NCBI GenBank assembly: GCA_040900345.1
Contig: JBBDZE010000008.1
Location: forward strand, 1 to 45,933
From: Candidatus Spechtbacterales bacterium
GTDB taxonomy: Bacteria; Patescibacteriota; Minisyncoccia; Spechtbacterales; 2-12-FULL-38-22
DNA: 45,933 nt
Direction of reading: 5' to 3'
Numbering within the stretch: the stretch's first letter is position 1; every line of letters starts with the position of its first letter. A model generated the notes under the pieces. That model was not told the origin of the DNA, did no database searches, and worked only from the letters and a program-made list of their open reading frames with translations. The position numbers and the translations under genes are program-made. This document shows, one piece after another, positions 17,360 through 40,819 of this stretch.

Positions 17360-17475
17360 TCTCCTTCGCTTTGATTATCATCAAAGCTACGGAAGAGCGA
17401 GCATTTCGAAAAATACGATGCTTGCCCTTCCGAAGCTCAAATGCCATTTGAGCGTAGGAGAGAGCTACGGGCGCA

Positions 17476-17550
17476 TGGTGCCCTCGACAGGAGTCGAACC
17501 CGTATTGCAAGCTCCGGAAGCTTGTGTTCTATCCATTGAACTACGAGGGC
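17476..17550 (-). tRNA. tRNA-Arg (anticodon CCG); CCA encoded
   Basis: GCCCTCG TA GTTC AATGGATA GAAC A CAAGC TTCCGGA GCTTG CAAT ACGGG TTCGACT CCTGT CGAGGGC A CCA. Confidence 0.85.
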
Positions 17551-17600
17551 GACGATTCCATTGGACAGACCAACTATACCACGGCCCGAAGGCATTTTCA

Positions 17601-19121
17601 ATGCTATACTCGTTGAAAATGGCCGCAAATTGGGCTATAATTGAGCCGTACCGTAAAGATTTCGTTGTGAAACTAGACATCCCAACTGAAGTACTCGAAA
17701 TTCTTAAAGCACTGCAAGGAGCCGGTTTTGACGCGTTCGTGGTGGGCGGGTCGGTGCGCGATTTACTTATGGGGAAAGAGCCCAAGGACTGGGACGTTGC
17801 CACTTCTGCCAAGCCGGAAGCGATTCAAGAACTGTTCCCCGACAGCTTCTACACAAATGAGTTTGGGACCGTGGGGGTCAAGACCGGGAGCGAGGACGAG
17901 CACCGTGCCATTGTGGAAATAACGACCTTCCGCACGGAAGAGAGCTATTCGGACAAACGCCATCCCGACAAGGTTTCCTTCACCACTTCGCTCGACGAGG
18001 ACCTCGCGCGCCGCGATTTCACGGTAAACGCCATGGCGCTGGCCGCCGATGGCAGTGTTCGCGACCCGTTTGAAGGACAGGCAGATCTTGAAAAGAAGGT
18101 GCTCCGGGCTGTCGGTACCGCCAACGAGCGTTTTAACGAAGACGCCTTGCGCCTCATGCGCGCCGTGCGATTTGCCACCGTGCTGGGGTTTGCTCTTGAA
18201 GAGCGCACGTACGAGGCGCTCAAGAAGAACGCCAGGCTCATTGATGCTATTGCCAACGAGCGCATCCGCGATGAGCTCATAAAGATTTTGGAAAGCGAGC
18301 GCGCCCATGAGGGAGTTGAGCTTCTGCGCGAGGCGGGGCTTTTAGAGCGCATTCTGCCCGAGGTGACCGCCGGGGTGGACGTGACCCAGAACAAGCATCA
18401 TATTTACTCGGTGTACGAGCATAACCTGCGCTCGCTGCAGTGGGCTGCTGAGAATGATTATGCGCTTGTCGTGCGCATTGCCGCCTTGTTACACGATGTG
18501 GGTAAGCCCCAAACCAAACGGGGAGAAGGACCCAGCGCGACGTTTTACGGGCACGATGTCGTGGGCGCGCGTATTGCCAGGAAGGCGTTGGAACGCCTGC
18601 ATTTTCCGCGTGAAACCGTGGAAAAGGTGGCGATGCTTATCCGCTACCACATGTTCTATTATGATATTGGCGAGGTAACCGAGCGCTCGGTGCGCCGGCT
18701 CTTGGCCAACGTGGGTAAGGAGAATATGGACGACCTTGTCAAAGTGCGCATTTGCGATAGAATGGGCTCCGGCGTTCCCAAGCCCGAGCCATACCGTTTG
18801 CGTCACTTCCAATATATGGTGGAGAAGGTGCAGAACGATCCCATTTCGGTCGGCATGCTCAAGGTGCGGGGCGATGACATTATGGCCGAATTGGACATTG
18901 AGCCAGGACCGAAGGTAGGGCAAGTTCTGGCCGTTCTGCTTGAAGACGTGTTGGACGAGCCTGAGCGCAACACGAAGGAATATTTGCTGAAGCGGGCAGA
19001 CGAGCTGGGCAAACTGTCCGACAAAGAGCTAGCCGCCATGCGTCAGGAGGCCAAAAAGAAACAGCAAGAGGTAGAGGAGCGTGAGCAAGGGAAAATCAAA
19101 AAGCGTTACTACGTAGAGTAA
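17601..19121 (+). CDS. cca: CCA-adding tRNA nucleotidyltransferase (class II PolyA-pol head plus HD domain)
   Basis: GGSVRDLLMGKEPKDWDVATSA, RDFTVNAMA, HDVGKP (HD domain). The start is trimmed from 17418 because that extension overlaps tRNA-Arg(CCG). ATG at 17601 or 17619. Confidence 0.85.
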   Translation: MLYSLKMAANWAIIEPYRKDFVVKLDIPTEVLEILKALQGAGFDAFVVGGSVRDLLMGKEPKDWDVATSAKPEAIQELFPDSFYTNEFGTVGVKTGSEDEHRAIVEITTFRTEESYSDKRHPDKVSFTTSLDEDLARRDFTVNAMALAADGSVRDPFEGQADLEKKVLRAVGTANERFNEDALRLMRAVRFATVLGFALEERTYEALKKNARLIDAIANERIRDELIKILESERAHEGVELLREAGLLERILPEVTAGVDVTQNKHHIYSVYEHNLRSLQWAAENDYALVVRIAALLHDVGKPQTKRGEGPSATFYGHDVVGARIARKALERLHFPRETVEKVAMLIRYHMFYYDIGEVTERSVRRLLANVGKENMDDLVKVRICDRMGSGVPKPEPYRLRHFQYMVEKVQNDPISVGMLKVRGDDIMAELDIEPGPKVGQVLAVLLEDVLDEPERNTKEYLLKRADELGKLSDKELAAMRQEAKKKQQEVEEREQGKIKKRYYVE

Positions 19122-20393: not shown

Positions 20394-20467
20394 GGGCGCT
20401 TAGCTCAGTTGGTTAGAGCGCAGCATTCACATTGCTGAGGTCACAGGTTCGAATCCTGTAGCGCCCA
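20394..20467 (+). tRNA. tRNA-Val (anticodon CAC); CCA not encoded
   Basis: GGGCGCT TA GCTC AGTTGGTTA GAGC G CAGCA TTCACAT TGCTG AGGTC ACAGG TTCGAAT CCTGT AGCGCCC A. Confidence 0.85.
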
Positions 20468-20545
20468 CTACTTCGCTCCGCTTGTGCGGAGCTTCGAAGT
20501 GCGCAGCACAAGATGGCTGTGCCCTCCGTAGCCTTGGCGAAGGAG

Positions 20546-20621
20546 GGGCCTGTAGTTCACCTGGTAGAACACCGCATTCGCATTGCGGAGGTAGGCGGTT
20601 CGAGTCCGCCCAGGTCCACCA
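20546..20621 (+). tRNA. tRNA-Ala (anticodon CGC); CCA encoded
   Basis: GGGCCTG TA GTTC ACCTGGTA GAAC A CCGCA TTCGCAT TGCGG AGGTA GGCGG TTCGAGT CCGCC CAGGTCC A CCA. The G3:U70 Ala identity pair is present. Confidence 0.85.
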
Positions 20622-20675: not shown

Positions 20676-21791
20676 ATGCTTATAACCGGCTGGCCCACCC
20701 TTTTTGTGGTGAGCGTTTTTCTTGTGGCAAAGTCGTTGCGGTTTTACCGAATGGCGGGCGGGAAAGTATGGGGCAAGCTGGTGCTCATCATGGTGCTGGG
20801 TTGGATGCTCAGCATGTACAGCCTGGGAATCCTCGCCACGATATACATGCTGGATGATGTACGCGCAATAGGGGTTGTTCTGCCGTTCTTTGTTATTTGG
20901 GTGGTCATGCTCGCGCTCATGTCCTGGACGATCCGTCGGTGGGGACGAGAGGCGCTCGTCCTGGCCGGGGCATACGGGGTGATGGAGAAAGCGGTCCGGG
21001 AGCGGACGCGCGAATTGAACAAAACAACCCAGGCACTCATAAAGCGCGACGAGGAACTGATCGCGGCCAACCAACGACTTCGTCAGCTGGATGAGCTCAA
21101 ATCGCAGTTCGTTGCGGTTGCAGCCCACCAGTTGCGCACCCCCCTTACGGAAATTCGATGGACCTTCAATGCGCTCGTTCATGAGGAGAAGGGTACGCTC
21201 AATGCCGAGCAAAAAAAGATAACGAGCCAAGCGCACCGTTCGACTCTTTACCTGATTGACCTGGTGAGCAACCTTCTAGATGTGTCGCGCATGGAGGAGG
21301 GGATGTTCGGGTTTGTGAAAAAAGAACAGCTGCTGGTACCGGTTGTTGAAAAAGTGTGTGCGTCCTTTGCGAGAGCTGCGGAGCGTAAAAAAATACATTT
21401 TGAAACGAATTTTTCCGCAGGGGTGGATGCTACATGTGCGTTTGACGCAGACAAGATGGCGATTGCAATTAGCAATGTAGTGGATAATGCTATTAAATAT
21501 ACTCCCGAAGGTGGGTCGGTAACGGTCTCGGTGGGTAAAGAGAATGATCGCGCGACTATTACCGTGGCCGATACGGGAATTGGCCTGCCAGCCCAGCAGG
21601 CTCCACAGCTTTTTTCTAAATTTTTTCGCGCAAAAAACGCGCAGCGCTATCAAACAAGTGGAACGGGCCTTGGCTTGTATTTAACGAAGAATATTATAGA
21701 ACATCACGGGGGAACCATAACGTTCACCTCTCAAGAAAACAAAGGAAGCACGTTCACTATTTCACTGCCGTTAGTCCACGTTAAGCAATAG
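20676..21791 (+). CDS. Membrane sensor histidine kinase (HisKA plus HATPase_c); no response regulator in the window
   Basis: N-terminal TM helices, H-box ELKSQFVAVAAHQLRTPLT, N-box VVDNAIKYTPEGG, G1 DTGIGL, G2 GTGLGLYL. Confidence 0.85.
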   Translation: MLITGWPTLFVVSVFLVAKSLRFYRMAGGKVWGKLVLIMVLGWMLSMYSLGILATIYMLDDVRAIGVVLPFFVIWVVMLALMSWTIRRWGREALVLAGAYGVMEKAVRERTRELNKTTQALIKRDEELIAANQRLRQLDELKSQFVAVAAHQLRTPLTEIRWTFNALVHEEKGTLNAEQKKITSQAHRSTLYLIDLVSNLLDVSRMEEGMFGFVKKEQLLVPVVEKVCASFARAAERKKIHFETNFSAGVDATCAFDADKMAIAISNVVDNAIKYTPEGGSVTVSVGKENDRATITVADTGIGLPAQQAPQLFSKFFRAKNAQRYQTSGTGLGLYLTKNIIEHHGGTITFTSQENKGSTFTISLPLVHVKQ

Positions 21792-21866: not shown

Positions 21867-22522
21867 TCAATACCTTTGCATCACTTCGAGGGGTGTGTGG
21901 TAGTTGAGCCCCATGTGCGGCCTCTCCTCGTTGTAGTAGGGCAGGTACTCCTTCAGTGCCTGCTGCAGTGCCCCCGGTGTTCGTGGCCGCACGCTCGCCA
22001 GGCACTCCTCCTGCACCGTCCGGATGAACCGCTCCACGTAGGCGTTGTCGGTGGGTGTGCGTACCCGGGGGTATGCCGATGCGTGATACCCCGTGCCGTA
22101 CACTGCGTGGTGAACCACTTGGAAAATTCACTCCCGTGGTCAGTCTGCAGCGTTGCAAACCCAAAGGGAGCATCTGCCTGCGCCCGCGCAACCACCTCGG
22201 CACTGGCCCGGCTGTTCACCCGCCGCACCGCCGAGGCGTACGCCCACCGGGAGTAGACGTCGATGAGCGCGTAGGCAGACAGACGGTCATCCCCGGGCGG
22301 GCCATCGAGCATGGCATCGAGCTCCACCAACGCTCCGGGCCGCTGTACCAAGGGCTTGGAAGGATACTGATGCCACTTCTTCCAGCGGGAATACTTGCTG
22401 CAGCCGGCACGCTTGAGGACCCTCTTCACACTCGACAAACTCACCACAACCCCTTCCTGATGAAGCCGCCAGTGGAGCTTCTGAGCTGCTTCCTCGTGTT
22501 CCAGACGAAAAGGAGTGTCTCA
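21867..22522 (-). pseudogene. Decayed IS481/IS3-type DDE (rve) transposase: N-terminally truncated and frameshifted
   Basis: The frame of 21953..22447 gives ...LVELDAM...LIDVYSRW...LQTDHGSEF...ARGITHRH. The C-terminus continues in another frame (21867..22118): RVRTPTDNAYVERFIRTVQEECL...YNEERPHMGLNYHTPLEV. The shift falls at a CCCCCGGG run near 22070-22080. An in-frame TGA at 22523-22525 removes the HTH region. Confidence 0.75.
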
Positions 22523-22629: not shown

Positions 22630-24294
22630 ATGTCTCGGAAGACAGAAGTTGAAAGGAATGAGGGCGACGACACCATTGCGGAGGAGTGGGGTTGGAAGCT
22701 GGGCATTACGGAGAAGAAAGCATTTGCAGGGGTAGTATGGATGCTCCCGCTCGCCTCGGGTTTTTTGCTCGCCCTTCTCTACTACGCAGCAGCCCCTGCC
22801 ATACTGCTCTTTGTAGCACTCGTACCCCTCTTCCTTTTTTTGGATCGGTGCCGCACGTGGGAAAGTCCCCTTTGGGGAGGATTTTTAGCGGCCTGCCCCT
22901 TTTACCTTGCCAACCTTCTTTTTCTTCTTGAGGTGCGATGGTTTGGGTTTCTCAGCTCGGAAGCGCTTTTCATGCAGGCGCTGTACGGAGTTGCGGCGAT
23001 AGCAGGAGGACTACTGGGCGCCCTTTTTGCGCTCACAGCCTATTTCTTGTGGCGGCGGCATTGGACGATGCTATTTGTTATTCCTGCCTTGTGGATTCTT
23101 TTTCAAGAGGTCTTGGTGCGGTGGGTGCAGTTTGATTTGACCTGGAGCTATTTAGGGTATCTTACCGAAACGATTACTCCCGTGCGACAGCTTGCGGCGC
23201 TCTCGGGTGTTGTGGGACTCGACTTTTTAATTATATGGGGCAACATTGCCGTTGTACTGACAATCCTGGCTTTTCAATCTGATCGGCAAAGGGTAACGCA
23301 CTTCTTCACTAAAATTGCGCCAGTAATCGTGCTTACGCTCGCGGGTGCAGGACTGCTATTTTGGAGCTATTCGAGGAGCGCGGCAGGGCTACGAGAGGGA
23401 GAGGCGATCACCGTCACCGTGATGAATACCGAACACGGGGCGCCGGTAAAGAGCTTCTATGACGAACCTTATCAAGGGTTGTTGAAAGAGGCTCTCGGCG
23501 AGAGCCCTGACATTATTCTCTTTCCCGAAAGCATCTTTGAAGTGCAGCATGGTGATTCCGAAACCTCCCCGGAGGCCCTGAGCAGGCAGTTAAGCGATAT
23601 TGCAGGAAATGACTTTGACGGCGCCATCCTTTTTGGCGGCTACCGCTCGGAGCTTGACGGAACGCTCTATAACTCTTTCTTTTTGTGGGAGGGCGGGTCT
23701 ATAACGGATATATATGATAAGCGCTATCTCGTTCCTTTTGCGGAGTATCGGCCGCGCTACCTTGAGCGTTTTTCCCCCCAGACCATTACCATGTATACGC
23801 CGGGCTCAAATGAAAGAGTGCTGCAGGGCGCAAGCTCACCTCCCATGGGAGTGACCATCTGTCAGGAAGTCATTTACCCAGAATCAAGCAGGGAAGCCGT
23901 GCGGCAGGGTGCCGAACTGCTCGTAAGCGGCGCGAACGATGGCTTTGTGGACCAGGTTGCGCTTTTACAAAAAGTTGCTCCTACGGACGTTCCGTGGCTC
24001 TATCTTCTCGAACATAGAATTGCGCGGTTTCGTGCCATAGAAGGAGGAAGATATCTCGTGCGCTCTACCAAGATAGGAACGGCTAGCATCATCGCTCCCG
24101 ACGGGAGCGATGTAGTCCGACTTACCTCGGGGGAAAGCTCGTTGGAAACGAGGGATGTTATATTGCGGGAGGGGTTTACGCCTTTCGTACGCTTTGGGTC
24201 CGCTCCCCTTATGGTTTTTTCAACCGTGATTGTTGGCTTTGCATTATCACGAGAGGGCAAGAGCCGCATGCGGCTTTGGTCTCAAAAAAAATAA
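22630..24294 (+). CDS. lnt: Apolipoprotein N-acyltransferase
   Basis: Polytopic N-terminal half plus a CN-hydrolase domain with the Glu/Lys/Cys triad contexts ILFPES, YDKRYLVPFAEY and VTICQEVIYPE. Confidence 0.8.
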   Translation: MSRKTEVERNEGDDTIAEEWGWKLGITEKKAFAGVVWMLPLASGFLLALLYYAAAPAILLFVALVPLFLFLDRCRTWESPLWGGFLAACPFYLANLLFLLEVRWFGFLSSEALFMQALYGVAAIAGGLLGALFALTAYFLWRRHWTMLFVIPALWILFQEVLVRWVQFDLTWSYLGYLTETITPVRQLAALSGVVGLDFLIIWGNIAVVLTILAFQSDRQRVTHFFTKIAPVIVLTLAGAGLLFWSYSRSAAGLREGEAITVTVMNTEHGAPVKSFYDEPYQGLLKEALGESPDIILFPESIFEVQHGDSETSPEALSRQLSDIAGNDFDGAILFGGYRSELDGTLYNSFFLWEGGSITDIYDKRYLVPFAEYRPRYLERFSPQTITMYTPGSNERVLQGASSPPMGVTICQEVIYPESSREAVRQGAELLVSGANDGFVDQVALLQKVAPTDVPWLYLLEHRIARFRAIEGGRYLVRSTKIGTASIIAPDGSDVVRLTSGESSLETRDVILREGFTPFVRFGSAPLMVFSTVIVGFALSREGKSRMRLWSQKK

Positions 24295-24311: not shown

Positions 24312-25379
24312 ATGCATACTCCTTTTGGGCGCATACAATTTAGTACCAAGAGTGCAGCTATTACGCTGTGTAGTGAGGTGTTGCTCGTAGGAGTGCTTTT
24401 GGGGGTGCTTATCGGGATGAATAATGCGGGCGGGGGTATGCATGAGGGTGATCAAAAAAGCGGACAGTACGGTACTATTCACGCGTCGAAAATGACGATC
24501 GAAGCGGAAAGAATACCCTTGCTGACTCCACACGAGCACGTAGTGGGGGACTCTCTGTATAACCCCTCGCATCACCAACTTGTTTCTTCCGACGTGATCG
24601 TGGTGCCAGAAGATATATGGGTTACGGGGGTATCATTTTCGCTTACCAATGCGGATGCTGCCACGTTGCATCATGCTATCCTGCATCGCCTGGATCGTTC
24701 TGATCCAGTATGCCCAAACTACGCAGCCGCAAGCGTTTTTGTATTCGGCGCTGATGGGGCCCTCCGTCAGATATCCTTCACCGATCCGTATGCGCTTTTT
24801 TTGCCCAAAGACACACCACTCCTTCTACAGGTAATGTTGCACAACCCCTTGCCGCCGTACGGGCCAGGAAAGGAGTATACCAATGTGCGTCCGATGATGA
24901 CGCTTGACGTCGAGCCGGCTACGGAAGCCAACAATAAGGTACCAGTTGAAAGCTATCGTCTGCACGTAAGTGATACGCCCTGTAACGTAACGTCTGCAAG
25001 CGGCGAGGTATTTTCGGTTCCGCCCCGCACGGAGCATTTTATAAAAAAGGGTGAAGAAGTGAACGGCATGAACTCTGCGAAGGTCGTTTTCCCCGCGGAC
25101 GGCACCATTATCGGAATGGGGGCGCACCTCCATGCATGGGAAGGCGGAGAGCAGGTGGACGTCTCTGTAAATGGTAACCTCCTCGAAACACTTGCATCGG
25201 AAAAAATGAGCGATGCTCCTTGGTCGTGGAAGACTGCTTATCGATACCCGGCAACGATACCGGTGAGGAAAGGGGATGTGCTATCACTCACGGCTACCTA
25301 TTCCAATCCGGGGCCACTATCTATTGAGGGGGCGATGGGCATGCTCAGCGTTTTCTTTGCAGCCCGCAGCACCCCCTAA
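24312..25379 (+). CDS. Signal-anchored protein with a PHM/DBH-type (copper type II ascorbate-dependent monooxygenase-like) ligand pattern, paralog 1
   Basis: TM anchor VLLVGVLLGVLIGM, then ordered motifs LHHAILH ... LQVMLHNP ... GAHLHAWEGGE ... EGAMGMLSVFF. My residue counts between them are 56, 95 and 68. This parallels PHM CuH His107/His108/His172 and CuM His242/His244/Met314. No profile search was run. Confidence 0.55.
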   Translation: MHTPFGRIQFSTKSAAITLCSEVLLVGVLLGVLIGMNNAGGGMHEGDQKSGQYGTIHASKMTIEAERIPLLTPHEHVVGDSLYNPSHHQLVSSDVIVVPEDIWVTGVSFSLTNADAATLHHAILHRLDRSDPVCPNYAAASVFVFGADGALRQISFTDPYALFLPKDTPLLLQVMLHNPLPPYGPGKEYTNVRPMMTLDVEPATEANNKVPVESYRLHVSDTPCNVTSASGEVFSVPPRTEHFIKKGEEVNGMNSAKVVFPADGTIIGMGAHLHAWEGGEQVDVSVNGNLLETLASEKMSDAPWSWKTAYRYPATIPVRKGDVLSLTATYSNPGPLSIEGAMGMLSVFFAARSTP

Positions 25380-25386
25380 CGCGACA

Positions 25387-26427
25387 ATGCACACCCTATC
25401 GAGAAAGACATGTATGCGCTATGCAGGGCTTATCGCCGTGCTGCTTTTTGTCGTTACCGGGGTTGCCGTGGTATTGGCGAAGGCGAATTTACAAGGGAGC
25501 GCTGATGACGAGGGTCTTGCAAGAGCGCTTCCCCAGCAGATCGTATTAGAGGCCGAAACGGTCCCTGCTCTCTACCCGCATGAACATTCGCTTGAAAACT
25601 CAGTATTCGATGAGGAGCACGGTATTTGGAAATTTTCTCCTACCGAGACGTTGGAGCAGGATGTTTGGGTTACAAAATTTGAGCTGGTGCTAGAAAACGC
25701 GCCCATGACGAGCCTGCATCATGCGGGCATTACGAACCTCAATGAGCCCAATCAAGTCTGCCCCAATTCGCCGCATGAAGTGTATCGGCATGAAATTTTC
25801 TCCACGACGCCCGATATGGCAGAGGCGCCCGTGGAATTTCCTGAAGGGTACGGTCTTTTTTTGCCAAAAGGGAGCCGCCTTGTGTTGGTAACCATGCTGC
25901 ACAATCCGCTTCCGCCCTACGGGCCCGGAGAGGTGTATACGGAGGTGGCCGCAAAGGTAGTGCTTAATGTAGAGCCGGCTTCAACGGCCAGCATGCGTCC
26001 CGTTGAGTACTATCGTTTGCACATTGACGACGTTGCTTGTCCGGGGGCTGTCTACCAGGAAGTCTTTACGGTGCCAGCGGGCGCACAAGGATTTGTGAAA
26101 AGGGGAACAGAGCGGGATGGTATGCATCCTGCGCGCGTGGAACTTTCAAGAAGCGGAGAGCTGATATATGCGACAGCCCATCTCCATCCTTGGGAGGGAG
26201 GAGAAAAACTTGACGTTTTGGTAAAGGATAAAAATGTTGCAACATTTAGGCCTCGGCAACTATCAAACGAGGCGTGGTCGTGGATAATTCCGCACCAAAA
26301 AAGCGGACTGCCGCGCGTAAGGGCGGGGGATACCCTGTCTATTGAGGCTACCTACAGCAATCCTTATGGGGGAGATATTTCTGGGGCAATGGGCATGTTC
26401 GTCTTTTACTTCGCCCCCGATCCTTAG
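25387..26427 (+). CDS. PHM/DBH-like copper monooxygenase-pattern protein, paralog 2
   Basis: Start trimmed to MHTLSRKTCMRYAGLIAVLLFVVTGVAVVLA. It carries the same motif series: SLHHAGITNL, LVTMLHNPLPPYGPG, ATAHLHPWEGGE, SGAMGMFVFYFA. It aligns collinearly by eye with 24312..25379. Confidence 0.55.
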   Translation: MHTLSRKTCMRYAGLIAVLLFVVTGVAVVLAKANLQGSADDEGLARALPQQIVLEAETVPALYPHEHSLENSVFDEEHGIWKFSPTETLEQDVWVTKFELVLENAPMTSLHHAGITNLNEPNQVCPNSPHEVYRHEIFSTTPDMAEAPVEFPEGYGLFLPKGSRLVLVTMLHNPLPPYGPGEVYTEVAAKVVLNVEPASTASMRPVEYYRLHIDDVACPGAVYQEVFTVPAGAQGFVKRGTERDGMHPARVELSRSGELIYATAHLHPWEGGEKLDVLVKDKNVATFRPRQLSNEAWSWIIPHQKSGLPRVRAGDTLSIEATYSNPYGGDISGAMGMFVFYFAPDP

Positions 26428-26688: not shown

Positions 26689-28443
26689 ATGAGAGTAGGC
26701 ATCCTCATTACCGGCATTGCGCTTAGTTTGGTAGCATCCCTTACCTATTATGGTTCTGGTTTTCAACCAGGGGCGTTGCTGCTTTGGCTGAGCGCTCTTT
26801 TCCTATGCGCTGCTTTCTTTTACCTCCACGACGGGAGTACCTTCAGACTTAACATGAGAAAATCTGACGTGCTGGCACTCAGTTTGTTGGTGTTATTGTT
26901 TGCCCCTCTTTATTTTGTTCGCCTCTACACGATACCTTTTCAGATCAACACGGACGAAGTTACCATCATGTACTTCCAAAGACTAAACGTTGCCAACCCC
27001 GACATATTTGGCATCAGTAACTACCTCGATTTTCCGTCTCTTATTTTTATCGCAACCGGCTGGATGCAAGAGCTTCTCGGGGGAGTCGGTCTTTTCCATG
27101 CAAGAATAGTCCATGCCGGGTTTGGCATAACCATCATTGTTCTGGCGTATGTCTTTTTCAGACAATTCTTTCCTGTTTTTTGGGCCGCGTTTGCTGCGGT
27201 TGTTTTGGGTGCAAACCATGCCCTTCTCGCTATAAGTCGCATGGCCATGAGGGACAATTCGGGCTTGCTGGTTGGGCTGGCGTCCTTGGCCTTTCTGTAT
27301 TACGGGTATTTCCACAAGCGCACGTTGCATACATTTGTGGGAGGAGGTCTTGCGGGGCTGTGCTTTTATGTGTACTTCCCCGCACGGGCAGTTCTTTTTA
27401 TATGGCTTGCGTACTTAGTAAGCTTCGGGATGTTGCTTCTGTTGCGCCGGCGGAATATCCAATGGGTTTTCCAGGCAGGAGCGGTTGCGGTTTTAGGCTT
27501 TTTCATTGTTTCTGGGCTCCTCCATATAGCTGAATTAAAAAACACAACTGACTCCGGGGAAGATTTTTATCGCGAACGATTTCTTGTATTTGAAGAAGGA
27601 AGAATACAGCAGCAATACTGGGTCAACGCCCCGACCATTGCTGAGGGCGTAATGGTGAATATCAAAAATGGGCTAACAACGTTCAATAACAACGTGTCCG
27701 ATCAGAGCTTTATTTATCCTAATGCTAATCACGGCTTTGTTGACCCTCTCAGCGGAGTGTTGCTCTGGATTGGCATTGGAATAATTTTGGTAAAAGCGTA
27801 CCGTAACCGAGGATTTAAACAGGAAGATCTGTTTATGTTAATCGGATTTTTTTCGTTATATATATCGTATGCTTTCATCATCAATAAAAGCCCCAACTAT
27901 ACACGGCTCCTGATTATCCTCCCGTTTGTTAGTTTCTTTATTACGCAGGCGGCAAAAATTGTTTCTGAAAAAAGCAGCGAACTTTTGGGCACACTTTCGC
28001 TTTCCCGGCGCGTCAGTAGCATCAGCCTGGGCGTGCTTCTAGCCATAACAATTGTTTCTTTGAATGTACTGATTTTCGGTGATTTTGCCAGGAAAGGGTT
28101 GGCTGAAGGCAATGATGTCGGAGGTACGGCTCGATATATAGAAGCACGAAAAGATGCCCCAGGACATCAGTTTGTTTTGGTAGCCGACCAAACATATCCT
28201 TACTACTCCTGGGGAGAAAAATTCCAATGGGAAGATTGGCTGGGGTTTTTTGTCGGCGAAAACCAATCATACGCGGTGCTTGATTCTGAAAGTTTTATTG
28301 AGAAACTGCCGGATTCAAACGCCACCATTTTTATGAATGAGCTTGTATGGCTCAACTATAAACGCTCCTTAAAGGAAAAATATAAAGAAATGAAACTGCA
28401 TAATATAAAAACCGACGGAAGCCTGATAGCCATAGAGGTGTGA
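26689..28443 (+). CDS. GT-C superfamily glycosyltransferase (ArnT / PMT_2-like), polytopic
   Basis: More than 10 hydrophobic helices. The first external loop has an acidic motif (PFQINTDEVTIMYFQ) in the position of the ArnT/PMT catalytic Asp-Glu. A soluble C-terminal domain of about 130 aa follows. Confidence 0.6.
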   Translation: MRVGILITGIALSLVASLTYYGSGFQPGALLLWLSALFLCAAFFYLHDGSTFRLNMRKSDVLALSLLVLLFAPLYFVRLYTIPFQINTDEVTIMYFQRLNVANPDIFGISNYLDFPSLIFIATGWMQELLGGVGLFHARIVHAGFGITIIVLAYVFFRQFFPVFWAAFAAVVLGANHALLAISRMAMRDNSGLLVGLASLAFLYYGYFHKRTLHTFVGGGLAGLCFYVYFPARAVLFIWLAYLVSFGMLLLLRRRNIQWVFQAGAVAVLGFFIVSGLLHIAELKNTTDSGEDFYRERFLVFEEGRIQQQYWVNAPTIAEGVMVNIKNGLTTFNNNVSDQSFIYPNANHGFVDPLSGVLLWIGIGIILVKAYRNRGFKQEDLFMLIGFFSLYISYAFIINKSPNYTRLLIILPFVSFFITQAAKIVSEKSSELLGTLSLSRRVSSISLGVLLAITIVSLNVLIFGDFARKGLAEGNDVGGTARYIEARKDAPGHQFVLVADQTYPYYSWGEKFQWEDWLGFFVGENQSYAVLDSESFIEKLPDSNATIFMNELVWLNYKRSLKEKYKEMKLHNIKTDGSLIAIEV

Positions 28444-28641: not shown

Positions 28642-29168
28642 GATGGTTTGCTGGACGTGTCCCGCATGGAAGACGGGACCTTTGGATTTGCAGCAAAAGA
28701 CCAGGCTCGCGTGCCGGTTGTTGAGAAAGTCTGTGCCTCATTCGAGCAGGCTGCCAAGCGCAAGAAGATATGGTTTTCCGTTGACACTCCTCCTGAAGAG
28801 GATATTGTTACGTTTGATGCCGATAAGAGACCGTTGCAATTGAAAACGTAGGGGACAATGCGGTTAAGTACACCCCAGAAGGCGGTTCGGTGACGGTCTC
28901 GGTAAAACAAGAGAACGACCGGGCGATTATCACGGTTGCCGACACGGGGATCGGCGTGTCGGCGCAGCAGCAGACCTACGTGTTCTCCAAATTTTTTCGA
29001 ACAGAAAACGCACAGCGGCTCGAACCAAATGGGACGGGCCTCGGGCTGTACCTTACCAAAAACATTGTCGAGCACCACGGAGGAGTCGTTTCGTTTTTGA
29101 GCAAAGAAAACAAAGGAAGCGTGTTTGTTATCGCGCTCCTTCTTACCACGTCTCAGCTGGTAGGCTGA
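28642..29168 (+). pseudogene. Frameshifted 3' fragment of a histidine-kinase paralog (HATPase_c only; no H-box or TM region)
   Basis: LLDVSRMEDGTFGFAAKDQARVPVVEKVCASFEQAAKRKKIWF... (28648..28851) then stops. In another frame IENVGDNAVKYTPEGGSVTVSVKQENDRAIITVADTGIGV...GTGLGLYLTKNIVEHHGG continues to 29168. It is collinear with residues about 200-371 of the intact kinase 20676..21791 but clearly diverged at the DNA level. Confidence 0.75.
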
Positions 29169-29203: not shown

Positions 29204-30328
29204 ATGCTTTATATGAAGCTGAGCGGATCCAGACGCATCCTTACTGCCGGGGTCATTCTTTTGTGTGTTCTTGACGGATTGTTGTTTGTCGTTTTGCAAC
29301 GTCTCGATAGCTCACAAGCTTCTGACGTTTCCGGTCCGCTCTACAAGACGCTTACCGTCGAACAGTTGAAGGTGTTGGCCCCCGACCCCTTTGTCTACCT
29401 GCACAACAATCTTGAAGAAATCGTACTGTATCAGGATGCGGACGGCGCTTTGCACTTAACGAGAGAAGCTTTCCGGCAAGGAATGATCGATCGATTTGGC
29501 TGCCACACGCTTGCTCACGAAATCGGCCATCACGCAGCTTCAGAGGGGCATTTTGAGCACATTGAGCTTCACATCTCTGATGCCAATATTAACTTTTGCG
29601 GAGGAGGTTTTATGCACGGGGTTGAAGGAGGACTTGCCGAATCGGGCCATCCGGGGTTTCGCGAAGATCTCTACTACTTCTGTACGCTTGCGCTTCCCGT
29701 GGCCACCACCTATGCTGCGTGCTATCACGGGGCGGGGCACGCATTTGTTGATCGTTCTCAAGACTTCCCTGAAGCGCTTCAGCTCTGTGATACCCTTATT
29801 ACGGACGAGCGCATTACCGCAACAGCTTGCTATCAGGGCGTTTTTAGTGAGCATATAGAAAGGATGCAAAGGGAAGGTGTCGAGAATAGCGAGTTGCTTG
29901 GATTCTGCGCTTCAATACGCCAAGCACTCCAAAATATCTGCGCACTAGAGCTGAATGGCCTGAACATTACCCCAGCATCGACGAATGCAGTAGTTGAAGA
30001 AACATTGAAGATTTGCGTGTACAACGACTACCCTGCAACGGTTAAGACGGGATGTTTGGAGAGCGTTTCTTGGGCTGCTGCAGATAGAGATGTATGGCAA
30101 CGAGGAAAGATTGTGCTCCTGCCTGTTATTTTCAATTTTCCTCAGGAGTTTCGGCGAGTATACATAGTGGCAACGACAAATAGGATGAAGGAGCACCTTA
30201 AGGACGGGACGGTAAATACGAATAGTTCGTTTTGTCAGGCATTTCCATCTCAGGACGATCAGCAGTTTTGCCGAGAGCGCATACTCACAAAAGACAACAG
30301 GGCTTTTACACACACCGCATTCCCATAA
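29204..30328 (+). CDS. Signal-anchored Cys-pair/His-motif helical-repeat protein (uncharacterised family, here called CHR), paralog 1
   Basis: TM anchor ILTAGVILLCVLDGLLFVVL; motifs GCHTLAHEIGHHA, CGGGFMHGVEG, ACYHGAGHAF, ACYQGVFSEH and further paired Cys. Confidence 0.8.
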   Translation: MLYMKLSGSRRILTAGVILLCVLDGLLFVVLQRLDSSQASDVSGPLYKTLTVEQLKVLAPDPFVYLHNNLEEIVLYQDADGALHLTREAFRQGMIDRFGCHTLAHEIGHHAASEGHFEHIELHISDANINFCGGGFMHGVEGGLAESGHPGFREDLYYFCTLALPVATTYAACYHGAGHAFVDRSQDFPEALQLCDTLITDERITATACYQGVFSEHIERMQREGVENSELLGFCASIRQALQNICALELNGLNITPASTNAVVEETLKICVYNDYPATVKTGCLESVSWAAADRDVWQRGKIVLLPVIFNFPQEFRRVYIVATTNRMKEHLKDGTVNTNSSFCQAFPSQDDQQFCRERILTKDNRAFTHTAFP

Positions 30329-30715
30329 TACGGCAGAGGAGGGTTCTTTGAGAAGTACGCACATTTCTTTGATTCGAGCATGGGGGCAGTAAGGAGGGTT
30401 GTTACAGAGAGGTGAAGCTTGTCGCAAGCAAGCAACGCAATACTTCTGTTGTAGCGTTCCGCGAGTAAGGAAACGCAGGAGCTTGTCTGTGGTAAGCTCC
30501 TGCGTGGGAGCCCCGTTCTTGTTGATCTAGCTTCCTTGATTACAGGAGGAGTTCTTACGAGAGATGCGGGTGTTTCGGGAGGGTTTTGGTATGATGGGGC
30601 CTGCATGAAGCGTATCTGGCCACGCAGGCATGCGTGATTGATGTGTCAGGAAGCATAGACGTGCACGGGCAGGCGCTTCTCAGCATGATAGCCATGCGAT
30701 ATCATAGGCATAGGT

Positions 30716-31987
30716 ATGATTCGCATGTTGACCACACCACTTTTCAGCAAAACATTTTTTTCTCGAAAGAAAATAGTGATCATTGGCCTTTTCGGTATAG
30801 CGAATGTGCTCCTTTTTGTTTTGTGGTTGGCGATGGGGGCTGTTCCTGGCGAGGTGCGCGATGCAAGAAGCAGCGAGGAGCTTCCTGAAATCCAGGAGTT
30901 GCAGGACACGAACCGCAACTTTGGAGAGCTGTCGGGCTATTTCAGTGCGCTTGCAGAGAACAAAGGGGGTGGGTATGCCTTTGCCGTCTTGCGCGCGGTA
31001 GAACTTCCACCCAACATCGACACGCACCTCTTGGGGCATGTCGTGGGGGACATTTTGTACAAGCAGAAAGGCCTGGAGGGCATCAACGTGTGCACCCACG
31101 ATTTTAGAAATGCCTGCTCCCATTCTATTGTCGTTGGGTTATTTAATGAGTTTGGCGAAGGTGCATTAGATGATATCGCGGCAGCCTGTCGCCAGGCGCC
31201 GGGAGGCAAGGGAGCCTATACCATGTGCTTTCATGGTTTGGGGCATGGCGTGTTGGCCTTTGTCGAGTACGAGATGCCCGACGCCATTGCGCTGTGCGAG
31301 AAAACGGGCACCGCTCTCTATCAGAACCGTGAATACATCGAATGCGTTGGCGGCACCGTTATGGAGATGATGGCGGGCGTCCACGACCCCGAGCTCTGGA
31401 GAGAAAAGTCGAAAAAGTATTTCCGTCAGGACGACCCGTTGTACCCCTGCACGAGTGATTTCATGCCTGATGAGGCGCGGGAGACGTGTTATATGTATCT
31501 CACGCCCCATCTGCTCGAATATGTGGGCGGCAATCCTGAACATTTTACGACGGCAAATTTTCGAGACGCATTTGCCTTATGCGACAAAGCCGATCAGAGG
31601 AGGCTACAGTTGGCGTGCAAGGCAAGTTTTGGGAAAGAGTTCATCGGGCTGATAAAGAACCGGGATATCCGCGACGTTGCAAACCTCAGCGAGGAAGAAG
31701 CGCGCACAATGTACGAGTGGTGTCTTTTGGCGGGGGATCGGGCTGGCAGTGCAGCGTGTATCGATAGCGCGATGGCGTCCCTGTACTGGGGCGGCGAAAA
31801 CGATCGGTCGGGCGCTGTTCGATTTTGCGGAGTCGTTGATGATGGGGAGTTCCAAACGATCTGTTTTAACAACCTGATAGGTGCGGTGCAGTATTATGTA
31901 CATGACCGCGCATACTACGAATCATTTTGTTCGGAGCTGCCATCTGCATATACCTCGGCATGCAAAGAGCGCCTCTTACAGAACTGA
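30716..31987 (+). CDS. CHR-family protein, paralog 2
   Basis: TM anchor IVIIGLFGIANVLLFVLWLAMG; HLLGHVVGDILY, CTHDFRNACSHS, MCFHGLGHGVLAF, ECVGGTVMEMM. Eight C-x8-16-C pairs in total. Confidence 0.8.
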   Translation: MIRMLTTPLFSKTFFSRKKIVIIGLFGIANVLLFVLWLAMGAVPGEVRDARSSEELPEIQELQDTNRNFGELSGYFSALAENKGGGYAFAVLRAVELPPNIDTHLLGHVVGDILYKQKGLEGINVCTHDFRNACSHSIVVGLFNEFGEGALDDIAAACRQAPGGKGAYTMCFHGLGHGVLAFVEYEMPDAIALCEKTGTALYQNREYIECVGGTVMEMMAGVHDPELWREKSKKYFRQDDPLYPCTSDFMPDEARETCYMYLTPHLLEYVGGNPEHFTTANFRDAFALCDKADQRRLQLACKASFGKEFIGLIKNRDIRDVANLSEEEARTMYEWCLLAGDRAGSAACIDSAMASLYWGGENDRSGAVRFCGVVDDGEFQTICFNNLIGAVQYYVHDRAYYESFCSELPSAYTSACKERLLQN

Positions 31988-32132
31988 CATGCCATCAATA
32001 CAACAACATAATCGATGGATGGGAAGCATTGCCAGAAATGCATAAAGAGAAGATTCGGCCATTGTTTGAAATTCTTGACCAAACGGCGAGAAACGGCAAC
32101 GCCAGTGGAGGATATCGCACGAGTAACTAACT

Positions 32133-33215
32133 ATGCGCTTTTTCGCCATCGTATCGGCTCATAAATTGAACAAGAACCGCTTGGTGCTTGTTGTTGGTAT
32201 AGGGCTTGTTGTAGTGTTAGTCGGAGTTGCATCCGCATTGTATTTCGGAGAGAGGGGTTCAGATGAACAAACCAGTATTGGTGCACAAGACAGGCCGGCA
32301 AACGATTATGCCTTGGAGGCAAAATGGTGGGCAGAAAGAATCGACACGATCGGCCCCGAAGATGCATACGAAGAGTTCAAGCACGCCTATCAACAGGAAA
32401 GCTATGCGAGGCAACACACCCTTGCGCATATCTTTGGAAGGGTACTCTATGAGAAGGCTGGCATCGAAGGTTTTGCAATATGTGATAGCGCTTTTGCATT
32501 TGGTTGTTATCATAGTTTTTTTGGCACCTCTATCAAGGCTGACGGAATGAGCATTGTGAAGGAACTCGATGGAGCATGTAGGCGCAGGTGGGGAGGCGCC
32601 TACATGCCCTGTCAGCATGGTATAGGCCACGGGATACTCAGTTCGTTAGGGGCAAATCACCTCCAAGACGCTCTCGATGTATGCTCAACAATCATGGAAC
32701 AGCCTACCGGGGGGTGTGCGAGCGGTATCTTTATGGAATATAATTTCAGGACGATGAGTGCTGTGTGGGGGGAAGGGGAGAGAACATTAGTACGTCCCTT
32801 ACGGGATGAGCGTGACGTGCATATGCCATGTGCGCTTTTACCGCAGCAATATACATCAGCATGTTATTATGAACAGCCACAGTGGTGGGAGTTTGTTCTT
32901 GGCGAAGATTACGAGCGGAGTAAAGCTCTCTGTGCGGAAATTACCGAGGAGGATGCTCGAGGAGCTTGCTTTCGTGGGGTTGGGCACTACAGAGCGAATA
33001 ATGGATACGACATAGAAAAAGTGCACGATGTATGCGGCACTATTGCCGCGGGGATGCCAGAGCAGCTTTTTTGCTATCAAGGCGCGGCATGGCTTTTTCT
33101 TGCAAGACAAAACGGGGGAGCGGATACAGCTCGTGCCCTATGCGAGGCCATCAAGAGAGAAGAAGACCGAGCGGTATGCTCGGCGAGTATAGAAGGTAAC
33201 ATATTTAGATTATGA
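32133..33215 (+). CDS. CHR-family protein, paralog 3
   Basis: TM anchor LVLVVGIGLVVVLVGVASALYF; HTLAHIFGRVLY, GCYHSFFG, PCQHGIGHGILS, GCASGIFMEY. Seven C-x7-12-C pairs (14 Cys). Confidence 0.8.
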   Translation: MRFFAIVSAHKLNKNRLVLVVGIGLVVVLVGVASALYFGERGSDEQTSIGAQDRPANDYALEAKWWAERIDTIGPEDAYEEFKHAYQQESYARQHTLAHIFGRVLYEKAGIEGFAICDSAFAFGCYHSFFGTSIKADGMSIVKELDGACRRRWGGAYMPCQHGIGHGILSSLGANHLQDALDVCSTIMEQPTGGCASGIFMEYNFRTMSAVWGEGERTLVRPLRDERDVHMPCALLPQQYTSACYYEQPQWWEFVLGEDYERSKALCAEITEEDARGACFRGVGHYRANNGYDIEKVHDVCGTIAAGMPEQLFCYQGAAWLFLARQNGGADTARALCEAIKREEDRAVCSASIEGNIFRL

Positions 33216-34363
33216 GCAAGACGATACGCACCATTGCTGTTGCGTTGCAAAAAAAAGTGATTTTTATGGCGAGGGGGGAAAAGAGTTTTGTGATAGCTGG
33301 TCTTTTTTTGGCAGGGTTGTTCGTGGCAGGAATAATCGTTATGGTTGACGGCTCGCAACCCCGCAGCCAAAGCGCGCCTTCGCAAGAAGAATTTCTCGAG
33401 ACAATGGAGGCGCAGTATCCTTCGGTTTTTGCCGGTATACGAGACAAGTTATCAGAGGTTGTTGAGGACTACGGTATAGGCGGGGCCCTTGCAATTTCGC
33501 TGAAGGCTTTTGGCGCGGGGGATATTTCTATGTACGAGTGCCATCTCCTTTTTCATACCATCGGACACAGTGCGGAGATTTATTACAACAGCGATGACAT
33601 GAAAATCGTGCAGCACGATAGCAACAACTGCGAGTTCGGCTATCGTCACGGCGTGGAAGCTCAAATCGTGGCACGAAATAGTGAACATTTTCAAGAAGAA
33701 TTACACCGTTTTTGTGACACCCTCATAGCCCATACCTCCTATCCAGATTGCTATCATGGCGCGGGACACGGCTTGGTGAAAGGAACACTCGATGTCCAAA
33801 AGACGCTCGAGCTCTGCGATTCGCTCCAAGAAGGGCGTTCCCGGTCAGTGTTTAGCTGTTATACCGGAGCTTTTAGCGAGGTCACGAATATCGTGGGAGG
33901 AGTGGACAGCGAGACGGGGTACCGGCTTACGGGAACTTCGCCGCTTACGCTCGGGGGACTAGAGGTGATGGAATACTGCGCTTCATTTACGGGAGAGGAG
34001 CATCAGCAGGCATGTGCTTACGAACTGAATGGATTAACGTTTTCTCTTAATACAACCGAGGAGCATCTTCGAAACGAATTATCGCGATGCGCGCAAGGAA
34101 GCTACGCCGAAGACCTCAAAGAAGCCTGTACGTACAGTGTTTCAGCCGTATTTGCCCAGCACATGCTGCCAAGAACGCAGTCGCTTTCGCCTTCGCATGA
34201 ACTGCTAGAAACCCTCACGCCGGGCCTGCGAGAAGCGTACATCATGGGTTCGGGTACGGAGATGAAGCAATTTATTATCAGCGGACAGAACCTAGACTGG
34301 AATGTCTTTTGCAATTTTTTTGAAGAGGATGAGCACGCAACGTGTGTCGCCATATTTGAGTAA
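33212..34363 (+). CDS. CHR-family protein, paralog 4
   Basis: ATGA start/stop overlap with the upstream gene. TM anchor FVIAGLFLAGLFVAGIIVMV; ECHLLFHTIGHSAEIYY, CEFGYRHGVEA, DCYHGAGHGLVKG, SCYTGAFSEV. Confidence 0.8.
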   Translation: MSKTIRTIAVALQKKVIFMARGEKSFVIAGLFLAGLFVAGIIVMVDGSQPRSQSAPSQEEFLETMEAQYPSVFAGIRDKLSEVVEDYGIGGALAISLKAFGAGDISMYECHLLFHTIGHSAEIYYNSDDMKIVQHDSNNCEFGYRHGVEAQIVARNSEHFQEELHRFCDTLIAHTSYPDCYHGAGHGLVKGTLDVQKTLELCDSLQEGRSRSVFSCYTGAFSEVTNIVGGVDSETGYRLTGTSPLTLGGLEVMEYCASFTGEEHQQACAYELNGLTFSLNTTEEHLRNELSRCAQGSYAEDLKEACTYSVSAVFAQHMLPRTQSLSPSHELLETLTPGLREAYIMGSGTEMKQFIISGQNLDWNVFCNFFEEDEHATCVAIFE

Positions 34364-34368
34364 GCGTT

Positions 34369-34776
34369 ATGCAGAAGAACAGTATACAGCACAGGGCAAC
34401 CAAAGGAGGCGTCGCAGGAATTGTTCTTGTGTGCATTCTTTTGGGCGGAACGTACGTTGTGATTGATCGACAAGAGGCGACGGTCGGGAAGGAGGACAAG
34501 CATGCCACTCATATCGTACGGGTTACGGATACAGCATTTGTGCCCGCAGAGCTGCATGTCCGTTGGGGAGATACGGTGCAGTTTATCACCGAGCGCGGTA
34601 CCGCGTTCTGGCCCGCCTCTGACCTTCACCCCATACACGAAGACTACCCCGATTTTGACGCACGAAGGCCGATTCCCCCAAATGAATCATGGACCTTTAC
34701 ATTTACCCAGAAGGGCAGTTGGAGCTACCACAATCACTTGCACCCTTTCTTTAGGGGCAGGATAGTTGTTGAATAG
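34369..34776 (+). CDS. Signal-anchored stand-alone cupredoxin-like domain protein with a His cluster and no ligand Cys (here called HCu), copy 1
   Basis: TM anchor VAGIVLVCILLGGTYVVI; FVPAELHVRWGDTVQFITERGTAFWPASDLHPIHEDYPDFD...PNESWTFTFTQKGSWSYHNHLHPFFRGRIVVE. Confidence 0.8.
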   Translation: MQKNSIQHRATKGGVAGIVLVCILLGGTYVVIDRQEATVGKEDKHATHIVRVTDTAFVPAELHVRWGDTVQFITERGTAFWPASDLHPIHEDYPDFDARRPIPPNESWTFTFTQKGSWSYHNHLHPFFRGRIVVE

Positions 34777-34783
34777 GCGAGGC

Positions 34784-36001: not shown

Positions 36002-36004
36002 GCT

Positions 36005-39060: not shown

Positions 39061-39161
39061 CGTTGGCAGCACCCGTGGGTAGGGGTTTAAGAGAAAAAGG
39101 GCCTATGCTATGCTGAAAAAATAAATTCGCTTTTATAGACAAACACACTACTCATAAAGCT

Positions 39162-39707: not shown

Positions 39708-39725
39708 CGTAATCAAGGGGGTACT

Positions 39726-40175: not shown

Positions 40176-40278
40176 TGCGCGCACGTTTCTACACGTTTGT
40201 CGATGAACGTGGTAGTATATAAATAATTATTGTAGCGGGGCCAGTGACATTTTACGTGGCTTCCGCTATGGATATCGT

Positions 40279-40806: not shown

Positions 40807-40819
40807 TTTTAGCGATTGC

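Follow-up and report, generated by a model that had tools for sequence, protein, structure and literature searches.

Membrane-anchored proteins resembling the copper monooxygenases PHM and DBH, encoded as a tandem pair in a Patescibacteria contig

The window analyzed here, a stretch of 45,933 nt, is contig JBBDZE010000008.1 of a metagenome-assembled genome (MAG) of Candidatus Spechtbacterales, which belongs to the Patescibacteria, also known as the candidate phyla radiation (CPR). Two paralogous genes lie head to tail on its plus strand, and their products resemble the two-domain core of peptidylglycine alpha-hydroxylating monooxygenase (PHM) and dopamine beta-hydroxylase (DBH). A preliminary description of this DNA had picked out a tandem pair of proteins in which an HH pair, a single His, an HxH motif, and a Met follow one another in the order of the PHM/DBH copper ligands. 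Both open reading frames (ORFs) do carry the complete set, and each of the quoted motifs was found: LHHAILH and LHHAGIT, LQVMLHNP and LVTMLHNP, AHLHAWEGGE and AHLHPWEGGE, and GAMGMLSVFF and GAMGMFVFYF in paralogs 1 and 2, respectively. The two genes and the features of paralog 1 on which the analysis turns are given below, where CuH and CuM denote the His3 copper site of domain 1 and the His2Met copper site of domain 2.

24312–25379, plus strand: paralog 1, predicted PHM/DBH fold, 355 aa, NCBI WD850_00670 (ORF, identical database entry, AlphaFold2 model, Foldseek, hhalign)
24345–24428, plus strand: predicted transmembrane anchor, residues 12 to 39 of paralog 1 (model helix; N-terminal hydrophobic window in 98/105 family members)
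24531–24572, plus strand: His triad P-H74-x-H76...H87 (invariant in 17 homologs; kept in 90 to 92 of 105 members)
24669–24674, plus strand: H120-H121, CuH-like HH pair (aligns to PHM H107/H108 and DBH H262/H263)
24711–24983, plus strand: cysteines C134 (24711–24713) and C224 (24981–24983), which co-occur in the family
24840–24842, plus strand: H177 in HNPxPPxGPG, candidate third CuH ligand (aligns to PHM H172)
25125–25133, plus strand: H272-x-H274, CuM-like HxH (aligns to PHM H242/H244 and DBH H412/H414)
25335–25337, plus strand: M342, candidate CuM methionine (aligns to PHM M314)
25387–26427, plus strand: paralog 2, predicted PHM/DBH fold, 346 aa from ATG 25387, NCBI WD850_00675 (ORF, homologs)

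The two proteins are 39% identical across 337 aa (E 6e-75), and in paralog 1 a signal-anchor helix is followed by two beta-sandwich domains. The ORF that encloses paralog 2 runs from 25276 to 26427 on the plus strand; translation most likely starts either at ATG 25387, which yields an N terminus (MHTLSRK...) parallel to that of paralog 1 (MHTPFGR...), or at the start given by NCBI, 25414, which yields 337 aa. Numbered from 25387, residues H65, H67, H78, H111, H112, H172, H265, H267, and M335 of paralog 2 match the nine His/Met residues of the paralog 1 set, and its cysteines are C125 and C218.

An exhaustive profile search of 1.84 billion representatives returned 415 family clusters (50% identity) at E ≤ 1e-3, 210 of them at E ≤ 1e-10. 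All members with a named source are Patescibacteria (Spechtbacterales, Kaiserbacteria, Parcubacteria, Paceibacteria, Minisyncoccia, and MAGs labelled Saccharibacteria); since the majority of members are nameless metagenomic sequences, restriction of the family to the CPR is no more than likely. Conservation was assessed in 105 diverse members. H120 is kept in 104 of these, H121 in 99, H177 in 100, and the HxH motif in 94, with NxW in the other 11; all six candidate ligands together with three further histidines (H74, H76, and H87) are present in 75/105. A Met occupies the position of M342 in 92 of the 94 members with HxH and in none of the 11 with NxW, which carry S, T, or A instead. This joint loss of Met and HxH lends independent support to the placement of M342 in one site with H272 and H274. 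A chance motif pattern was ruled out, as H120, H121, H177, H272, H274, and M342 are invariant across the 17 closest homologs and kept family-wide.

The preliminary description had also counted intervals of 56 (H121 to H177), 95 (H177 to H272), and 68 (H274 to M342) residues in paralog 1 and called them close to those of PHM. The counting is correct, but the likeness fails for the middle interval: the PHM spacings are 64, 70, and 70, so that the middle interval of paralog 1 is 25 residues longer, and about 25 additional residues between the third His and HxH set the family apart from PHM. Nor does the Cys after HH sit as in PHM, as had been proposed. The PHM Cys comes directly after the hydrophobic run, whereas C134 of paralog 1 lies 13 residues past H121 and co-varies with C224.

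An AlphaFold2 model of paralog 1, built with the family alignment as input, reached a mean predicted local distance difference test score (pLDDT) of 85.7 and a predicted template modeling score of 0.79. It consists of the N-terminal helix (residues 12 to 39) and an all-beta body, with a pLDDT of at least 91 in the 10-residue blocks to which the six candidate ligands belong. When the PDB was searched with Foldseek, the first 31 ranks were taken exclusively by rat PHM and human DBH (E 2e-11 to 6e-8, probability 1.00), with 319 to 351 aligned columns, template modeling (TM) scores of 0.42 to 0.56, and 12 to 15% identity to PHM; matches to DBH reached E 1e-9 and a TMq of up to 0.56. Modest TM scores are to be expected of a two-domain hinge protein that bears an additional transmembrane helix. 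The preliminary description had made its reading depend on similarity to the PHM fold, and this similarity proved strong and specific. The proteins very probably have the PHM/DBH-superfamily fold.

The next fold classes in the search, including PNGase F, GH172, and viral double-jelly-roll capsid proteins, scored E ∼4e-5 or worse. Their appearance (E 4e-5 to 3e-4), along with the unmet Pfam thresholds of the copper families, would suit a different explanation, in which the proteins are double-jelly-roll binding or hydrolase modules of the PNGase F or carbohydrate-binding type that are PHM-like by fold alone and whose histidines bind another metal or are structural. We consider this highly improbable: the scores of PHM and DBH exceed that of PNGase F by at least six orders of magnitude, the family profiles show a specific alignment with these two enzymes that keeps the ligand histidines in register, and HxH and Met are lost jointly in one subclade, as a single metal site would predict. 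A PNGase F-like module was rejected as a candidate because PNGase F-type entries reached only E 5e-5 to 3e-4 and TM 0.31 to 0.43, compared to 2e-11 for PHM, and because the His/Met set is conserved.

Homology was further examined by profile-profile comparison. A PDB sequence search supplied the references, 1SDW_A for rat PHM and 4ZEL_A for the core of human DBH, and the 105-sequence family alignment was compared by hhalign with a 23-sequence PHM alignment and with the DBH core. The family matched PHM with a probability of 81.7% (E 1e-5) in local mode and 89.8% (E 2e-7) in global mode, and it matched DBH locally with 89% (E 2.3e-6; range for DBH, 80 to 89%). When the domains were compared separately, the N-terminal domain matched PHM (91%, E 1e-6) and the C-terminal domain matched DBH (82%, E 1e-5); the N-terminal domain gave no significant match to DBH (4%, E 0.0098). 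Controls with reversed templates and one unrelated family remained at 0.0 to 1.5% (E 0.033 to 0.88). The proposed relationship to the Pfam families Cu2_monooxygen and Cu2_monoox_C is sub-threshold by direct scan and significant by profile-profile comparison. No NCBIfam model was matched by the family, and a search of PDB sequences with the family profile found nothing related. Fold search and profile-profile alignment agree on membership of the PHM/DBH superfamily, which was the core of the preliminary interpretation.

All six candidate ligands fall on the PHM ligand positions H107, H108, H172, H242, H244, and M314 in the alignment with PHM. Judged from the aligned sequences, four of the six correspondences (those of HH and HxH) appear robust, and those of the third His and the Met are probable. 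Local motifs are also shared with the group of DBH (4ZEL), tyramine beta-monooxygenase, and MOXD1: VHYHNPL of DBH resembles MLHNPLPP of the family, and a further local motif pairs GDVLITSCTYNTED with GDVLSLTATYSNPG. In open PHM, two solvent-separated copper sites face the interdomain cleft about 11 Å apart. It is likely that the family proteins bind two coppers.

The comparison with PHM (PF01082 and PF03712; 1PHM, 1SDW) indicates a shared two-domain beta-sandwich core and the same domain order, with the candidate His3 set in domain 1 and the candidate His2Met set in domain 2; PHM is lumenal, and the family proteins are predicted to be extracytoplasmic. Unlike PHM, the family lies below the Pfam thresholds (at the 12 to 15% identity given above), bears an N-terminal signal anchor, lacks a PAL fusion, and occurs in Patescibacteria. 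It differs from DBH in having neither a DOMON nor a dimerization domain, and the substrate pockets are not comparable. The residues that anchor the substrate carboxylate in PHM are not conserved, with R240 replaced by Gly in 69/105 members, N316 by Met or Ile, and Y318 by a gap; therefore, the family is not a peptidylglycine hydroxylase. The proteins are neither members of the curated Pfam families, whose thresholds are unmet, nor orthologs of PHM, whose substrate anchors are absent.

Several traits belong to the family itself. Membrane anchoring, as described earlier, is borne out by the helix predicted in paralog 1 and the N-terminal hydrophobic segment found in nearly all members, and with R7 and K13 preceding the anchor, the positive-inside rule predicts that the catalytic domains lie outside. 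C134 and C224 occur together in 89 members, are both missing from 15, and occur singly in 1, and exactly two cysteines are found beyond residue 45 in 85/105. This near-perfect co-occurrence suggests an extracytoplasmic location and an interdomain C134-C224 disulfide, which is probable from the family sequences; PHM has five disulfides, as opposed to the one co-varying pair here. The triad PHxH...H has no counterpart in PHM or DBH (hhalign places H74, H76, and H87 opposite PHM G70, T72, and T78) and may form a third metal site or the point at which electrons enter.

The preliminary description had called enzymes of this type characteristically eukaryotic, which is consistent with the searchable literature and with NCBIfam. 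No characterized prokaryotic enzyme of the PHM/DBH fold was found in that literature, no prokaryotic NCBIfam model matches the PHM or DBH cores, and searches of the literature on prokaryotic PHM/DBH-like enzymes, CPR copper proteins, and bacterial Cu2_monooxygen yielded no account of the family. The Pfam Cu2_monooxygen families do hold some bacterial sequences. Within the PHM/DBH superfamily, the family can be regarded as a membrane-anchored branch that is not curated, appears specific to Patescibacteria, and is distinguished by an additional His triad and by a gene context of envelope enzymes. This context was assessed at about 16 loci carrying family members; the neighboring features in the window are as follows.

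22630–24294, plus strand: apolipoprotein N-acyltransferase (Lnt), with LNT_N and CN_hydrolase domains; TIGR00546
26689–28443, plus strand: polytopic membrane protein, 584 aa, downstream of the pair
29204–36001, plus strand: five paralogous membrane-anchored Cys/His-rich all-alpha proteins (29204–30328, 30716–31987, 32133–33215, 33212–34363, and 34766–36001)
36005–42786, plus strand: three proteins that join a His-rich cupredoxin-like domain (N-terminal) to a Cys/His-rich one (C-terminal) (36005–37537, 37489–39060, and 41248–42786)
39162–39707, plus strand: conserved small ORF with an ortholog at locus L005

The identification of the upstream neighbor as lnt holds, with 164.8 bits against TIGR00546 (equivalog cutoff, 132.9). 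The gene ends 17 bp upstream of paralog 1. Lnt homologs are present within ∼7 kb at 8 loci (the window, L001, L005, L010, L013, L014, L015, and L019) and directly upstream of the family gene at three of them (the window, L001, and L014), and Lnt is the most recurrent neighbor of the family. For the downstream ORF 26689–28443, the earlier assignment as a GT-C glycosyltransferase found no support, as there was no Pfam match at E ≤ 0.01 (one spurious match at E ≤ 1) and no NCBIfam or PDB-sequence match. No homolog of this ORF was found near PHM-like genes at the other loci.

Other partners recur both as fused domains and as neighboring genes. A Sulfatase-family domain is fused in member P0022 and encoded by a neighboring gene at L019 (E 1e-23); PAP2 is fused in P0060, and a DAGK-PAP2 gene lies directly upstream at L017/L018 (E 4e-13); a polytopic HTTM-like membrane protein is fused in P0050 and adjacent at L001 (E 3e-47). 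PG_binding_1 is fused in P0086 and P0093, two of the members that carry NxW. These fusions and neighbors, i.e., Lnt, PAP2/DAG kinase, Sulfatase-family and HTTM-like proteins, and a peptidoglycan-binding domain, all act at or on the external side of the membrane, and on this ground, we infer that the substrate class would be an envelope lipid, lipoprotein, or wall component. The narrower proposal of an envelope lipid or lipoprotein is tentative and somewhat doubtful. Tandem copies are found in the window (two), L001 (three), L005 (two), and L017/L018 (two). In an unbootstrapped neighbor-joining tree, the copies of L001, L005, and L017 cluster by genome, which points to repeated lineage-specific duplication; the two copies of the window fall into different subclades.

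The ∼13 kb downstream (29204–42786, plus strand) hold eight paralogous genes for membrane-anchored Cys/His-rich all-alpha (solenoid) proteins, three of them with a cupredoxin-like N terminus. Both a fused domain and a conserved neighborhood tie the array to PHM-like genes. The C terminus of member P0056 is a Cys/His-rich helical domain that is 36% identical to ORF 32133 over 298 aa (E 3e-56) and also matches ORF 30716 (E 1e-20). Cys/His-rich orthologs occur at L002 and L005; at L005, they stand beside PHM-like genes together with cupredoxin-like and ORF 39162 orthologs, at L002, genes of the Cys/His-rich and of the cupredoxin-like kind are both present, and L010 carries a single ORF 41248-type gene. 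The model of ORF 30716 is a confident all-alpha helical solenoid for which the PDB fold search gave no significant match (best E 0.05, generic HEAT/TPR repeats). The ORF 30716 family comprises >1100 homologs (∼50% identity) with 14 invariant cysteines and without any Pfam domain, and the named ones are all Patescibacteria. Within the window, the array brings to notice a large, conserved CPR cluster of Cys/His-rich and His-rich cupredoxin-like proteins.

The term "His-rich cupredoxin-like array" used in the preliminary description is apt in that the three proteins are His-rich and resemble cupredoxins. Their Cupredoxin_1 scores (21 to 24 bits) are below the threshold of 27, and the type-1 ligand set is missing. 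The N-terminal domains of ∼100 aa share an invariant WPASxxHPxH...FD...HDH, which provides four histidines and no Cys or Met ligand; consequently, they are not type-1 blue-copper electron carriers. Judged by sequence, the domain seems to combine a cupredoxin-like scaffold with a hitherto undescribed metal site of His residues only. The suggestion that these proteins are the electron donors stays speculative, in view of the missing type-1 ligands and of co-occurrence in four loci only. Other CPR genomes also encode the domain by itself, as a protein of 137 aa (L005, 12677–13090, minus strand; L002, 8573–8986).

A second possible electron source is seen at L022, where the neighbors of member P0083 are an NqrB/RnfD-FAD-NAD_binding fusion, a 177-aa FMN_bind-like ORF (sub-threshold), and ApbE. 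A 249-aa acidic ORF is also part of the block adjoining P0083 (L022, 3933–9089). NQR/RNF-like modules, found mainly in Actinobacteria and CPR, are inferred to pass cytosolic NAD(P)H electrons to an extracytosolic FMN domain or to acceptors (Meheust et al. 2021, PMC8238504). Such a flavinylation system, which at L022 comes with a candidate terminal acceptor, is an accessory electron supply and not homologous to the PHM-like proteins. It could plausibly deliver cytosolic electrons to a surface copper enzyme, and the linkage fits a redox-active role for the copper protein.

The same linkage also bears on the idea of an extracytoplasmic oxidase or O2 scavenger, which would reduce O2 to H2O2 or water without a specific substrate and so protect an oxygen-sensitive symbiont or dispose of reductant. 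A redox-type ligand set, an NAD(P)H-to-outside module at L022, and the absence of the PHM substrate-binding residues would all agree with an oxidase, and uncoupled O2 reduction is known for PHM and DBH with poor substrates. We nevertheless regard an oxidase as quite unlikely, given that the module is linked at a single locus, that repeated fusion and clustering with lipid- and lipoprotein-modifying enzymes suggest a specific envelope substrate, and that recurrent lineage-specific duplication better fits substrate diversification.

The members with NxW form a subclade without the CuM-like site. They keep the CuH-like HH...H, and 10 of the 11 have also lost at least one His of the triad. At L021 (6755–12681), one of them, P0091 (HxH to NxW, Met to Ser), lies between metal-homeostasis genes: one flank holds a CsoR/RcnR-family repressor and DUF2202, and the opposite flank holds an HD-domain gene, ZnuABC, and a repressor resembling DtxR. 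Such surroundings suggest a different function for the CuM-less subclade.

Some members also show Pfam near-matches. The commonest is SURNod19 (PF07712), seen in the C-terminal half of 14/105 members (best E 2e-4) and never above threshold; the two window proteins score 16.3 and 13.1 bits (cutoff, 25). SURNod19/MtN19-like proteins are a plant, fungal, and bacterial family. In common bean, Nod19, a protein of unknown function, is a target of miR398b, and its transcript level follows the copper supply (PMC3882225). A SURNod19 bridge to PHM was not found, as a scan of 23 true PHMs at E ≤ 10 gave zero SURNod19 matches.

These observations are relevant to the main alternative, a non-catalytic role in which the PHM-like scaffold serves to bind, buffer, or transfer copper on the outside of the cell, within a copper-homeostasis island formed with the many His/Cys-rich and cupredoxin-like neighbors. 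The wealth of extracytoplasmic His/Cys-rich proteins in the cluster, the SURNod19 near-match with its copper-responsive bean relative, and the CuM-less subclade, which keeps the His3 site and has one gene beside CsoR-family, DUF2202, ZnuABC, and DtxR-like genes, speak for a role in copper handling; in addition, E. coli lnt was first described as the copper-sensitivity gene cutE. In most members, however, His3 and His2Met are distributed over separate domains (full set in 75/105), which is the hallmark of catalytic enzymes and not of chaperones. True PHMs lack the weak SURNod19 match, leaving that link unproven, a module that supplies electrons from NAD(P)H adjoins the gene of one relative, and the fusions are to enzymes (Sulfatase and PAP2), with none to metal transporters. 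For the family at large, copper buffering is judged unlikely, and it may well apply to the CuM-less subclade.

The account we favor is that of a type-II membrane-anchored, extracytoplasmic protein that shares its two-domain architecture with the catalytic core of PHM and DBH, which are noncoupled binuclear copper monooxygenases. The His3 site of domain 1 (H120, H121, and H177) would be the CuH-like, electron-accepting site, and the His2Met site of domain 2 (H272, H274, and M342) would be the CuM-like, O2-activating site. An external one-electron donor would reduce the two Cu(II); O2 would then bind the Met-ligated copper, and a Cu-superoxo species would abstract an H atom from a substrate C-H held in the interdomain cleft, giving a hydroxylated product. 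The substrate is not a glycine-extended peptide; it would be a lipid, a lipoprotein, or a molecule attached to the wall, located on the external side of the membrane. Candidate donors would be the His-rich cupredoxin-like and Cys/His-rich proteins of the cluster and, in one relative, the NAD(P)H-driven flavinylated NQR/RNF-like module. As a whole, a surface-anchored two-copper monooxygenase working by the PHM/DBH mechanism appears reasonably probable to us; on the narrower point that the protein is a monooxygenase, we lean only slightly towards that view. A much more detailed version is unlikely to hold as it stands: an O2-dependent two-copper (possibly three-copper, via PHxH...H) monooxygenase that hydroxylates a lipid, lipoprotein, or wall component of the cell itself or its host, alongside Lnt, PAP2/DAG kinase, and Sulfatase-family enzymes and with dedicated extracytoplasmic electron partners (cupredoxin-like/Cys/His-rich proteins or NQR/RNF-like modules).

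A number of observations weigh against a copper monooxygenase. With respect to homology, the window proteins reach 11.1 bits against Cu2_monoox_C (cutoff, 23) and do not match Cu2_monooxygen in the Pfam scan; among the 105 members, Cu2_monoox_C is weakly matched in 4 and Cu2_monooxygen in 1, none above threshold. The commonest near-match, SURNod19, is a family without assigned function, and the C-terminal domain alone gave no significant match to PHM (3%, E 0.015). With respect to the ligands, H177 falls on DBH H335, the second His of VHYHNP and 2 residues past the ligand H333, and M342 lies ∼5 residues before DBH M487, where GAMGML pairs with GGFGIL. The preliminary description had also made its reading depend on the ligands superposing on the CuH and CuM sites; the match to these sites is alignment-based. 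With respect to chemistry, the substrate-binding residues are lost, so the chemistry and substrate of PHM are not transferable, and the 11-member subclade without the CuM-like site means that at least some family members are not monooxygenases. As to electrons and oxygen, the cupredoxin-like proteins, found at only 4 loci, lack the type-1 ligand set; an ApbE/NQR-like module, sought at all loci, is present only at L022 (1 of ∼16) and absent from the window. CPR bacteria are generally described as fermentative and often anaerobic, which bears on the supply of O2, and they are not known to make ascorbate, which bears on the reductant.

Noncoupled binuclear copper monooxygenases are known almost wholly from enzymes of the eukaryotic secretory pathway (PHM, DBH, and tyramine beta-monooxygenase), and PHM and DBH are the animal enzymes that make amidated peptide hormones and noradrenaline. 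According to these findings, a deeply branching radiation of bacteria has the scaffold and the candidate ligand set, combined with another type of anchor and substrate pocket, additional clustered histidines, and a gene context of envelope lipid and lipoprotein enzymes. If active, the proteins would provide the CPR with an oxygen-dependent surface chemistry that is missing from current metabolic reconstructions, a bacterial model of small size and simple build, probably with few disulfides, of the long-debated PHM/DBH mechanism (long-range electron transfer and open versus closed states), and a potential new biocatalyst scaffold. If the more detailed version given above holds, PHM/DBH-type chemistry would for the first time be attributed to the biogenesis of a bacterial envelope, and presumed minimal fermenters would possess an O2-dependent step that was not expected of them.

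Further gene arrangements were noted at individual loci. A conserved six-gene block containing a PHM-like gene is found at L013 (4184–11878), L015 (4119–11817), and L019 (831–9982). It consists of genes for Lnt, an arylsulfotransferase-like beta-propeller, a ∼255-aa protein, a ∼740-aa protein (whose L013 copy matches Gly_rich_2 weakly and below threshold), the PHM-like protein, and a ∼320-aa protein; at L019, the Sulfatase-family gene lies ahead of the block. On the Kaiserbacteria contig L002 (11376–13507, minus strand), YcaO and nitroreductase-family genes are located 4 to 6 kb downstream of the PHM-like gene. This pairing is typical of azoline-forming clusters for ribosomally synthesized and posttranslationally modified peptides.

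Within the window, tRNA-Val (20394–20468) and tRNA-Ala (20546–20621) lie directly upstream of a histidine kinase gene (20676–21791, plus strand), which is followed on the minus strand by an rve integrase fragment (21953–22447). A 92-aa ORF (28890–29168, plus strand) is 70.6% identical to the C-terminal ATPase end of this kinase, 7 kb upstream, and has the look of a kinase fragment, either duplicated or truncated, that brackets the block of Lnt, the PHM-like genes, and ORF 26689. The GC content declines from 0.54 to 0.60 upstream to 0.47 to 0.53 across the cluster. These features hint at a recombination-prone or acquired region, but a search for island boundaries found no flanking direct repeats of 30 bp or longer. 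Lastly, ARAGORN placed a tRNA-Arg (ccg) at 17476–17550 (minus strand), where it overlaps the 5′ end of the ORF annotated as CCA-adding enzyme/poly(A) polymerase (17418–19121, plus strand), the true start of which is probably further downstream.

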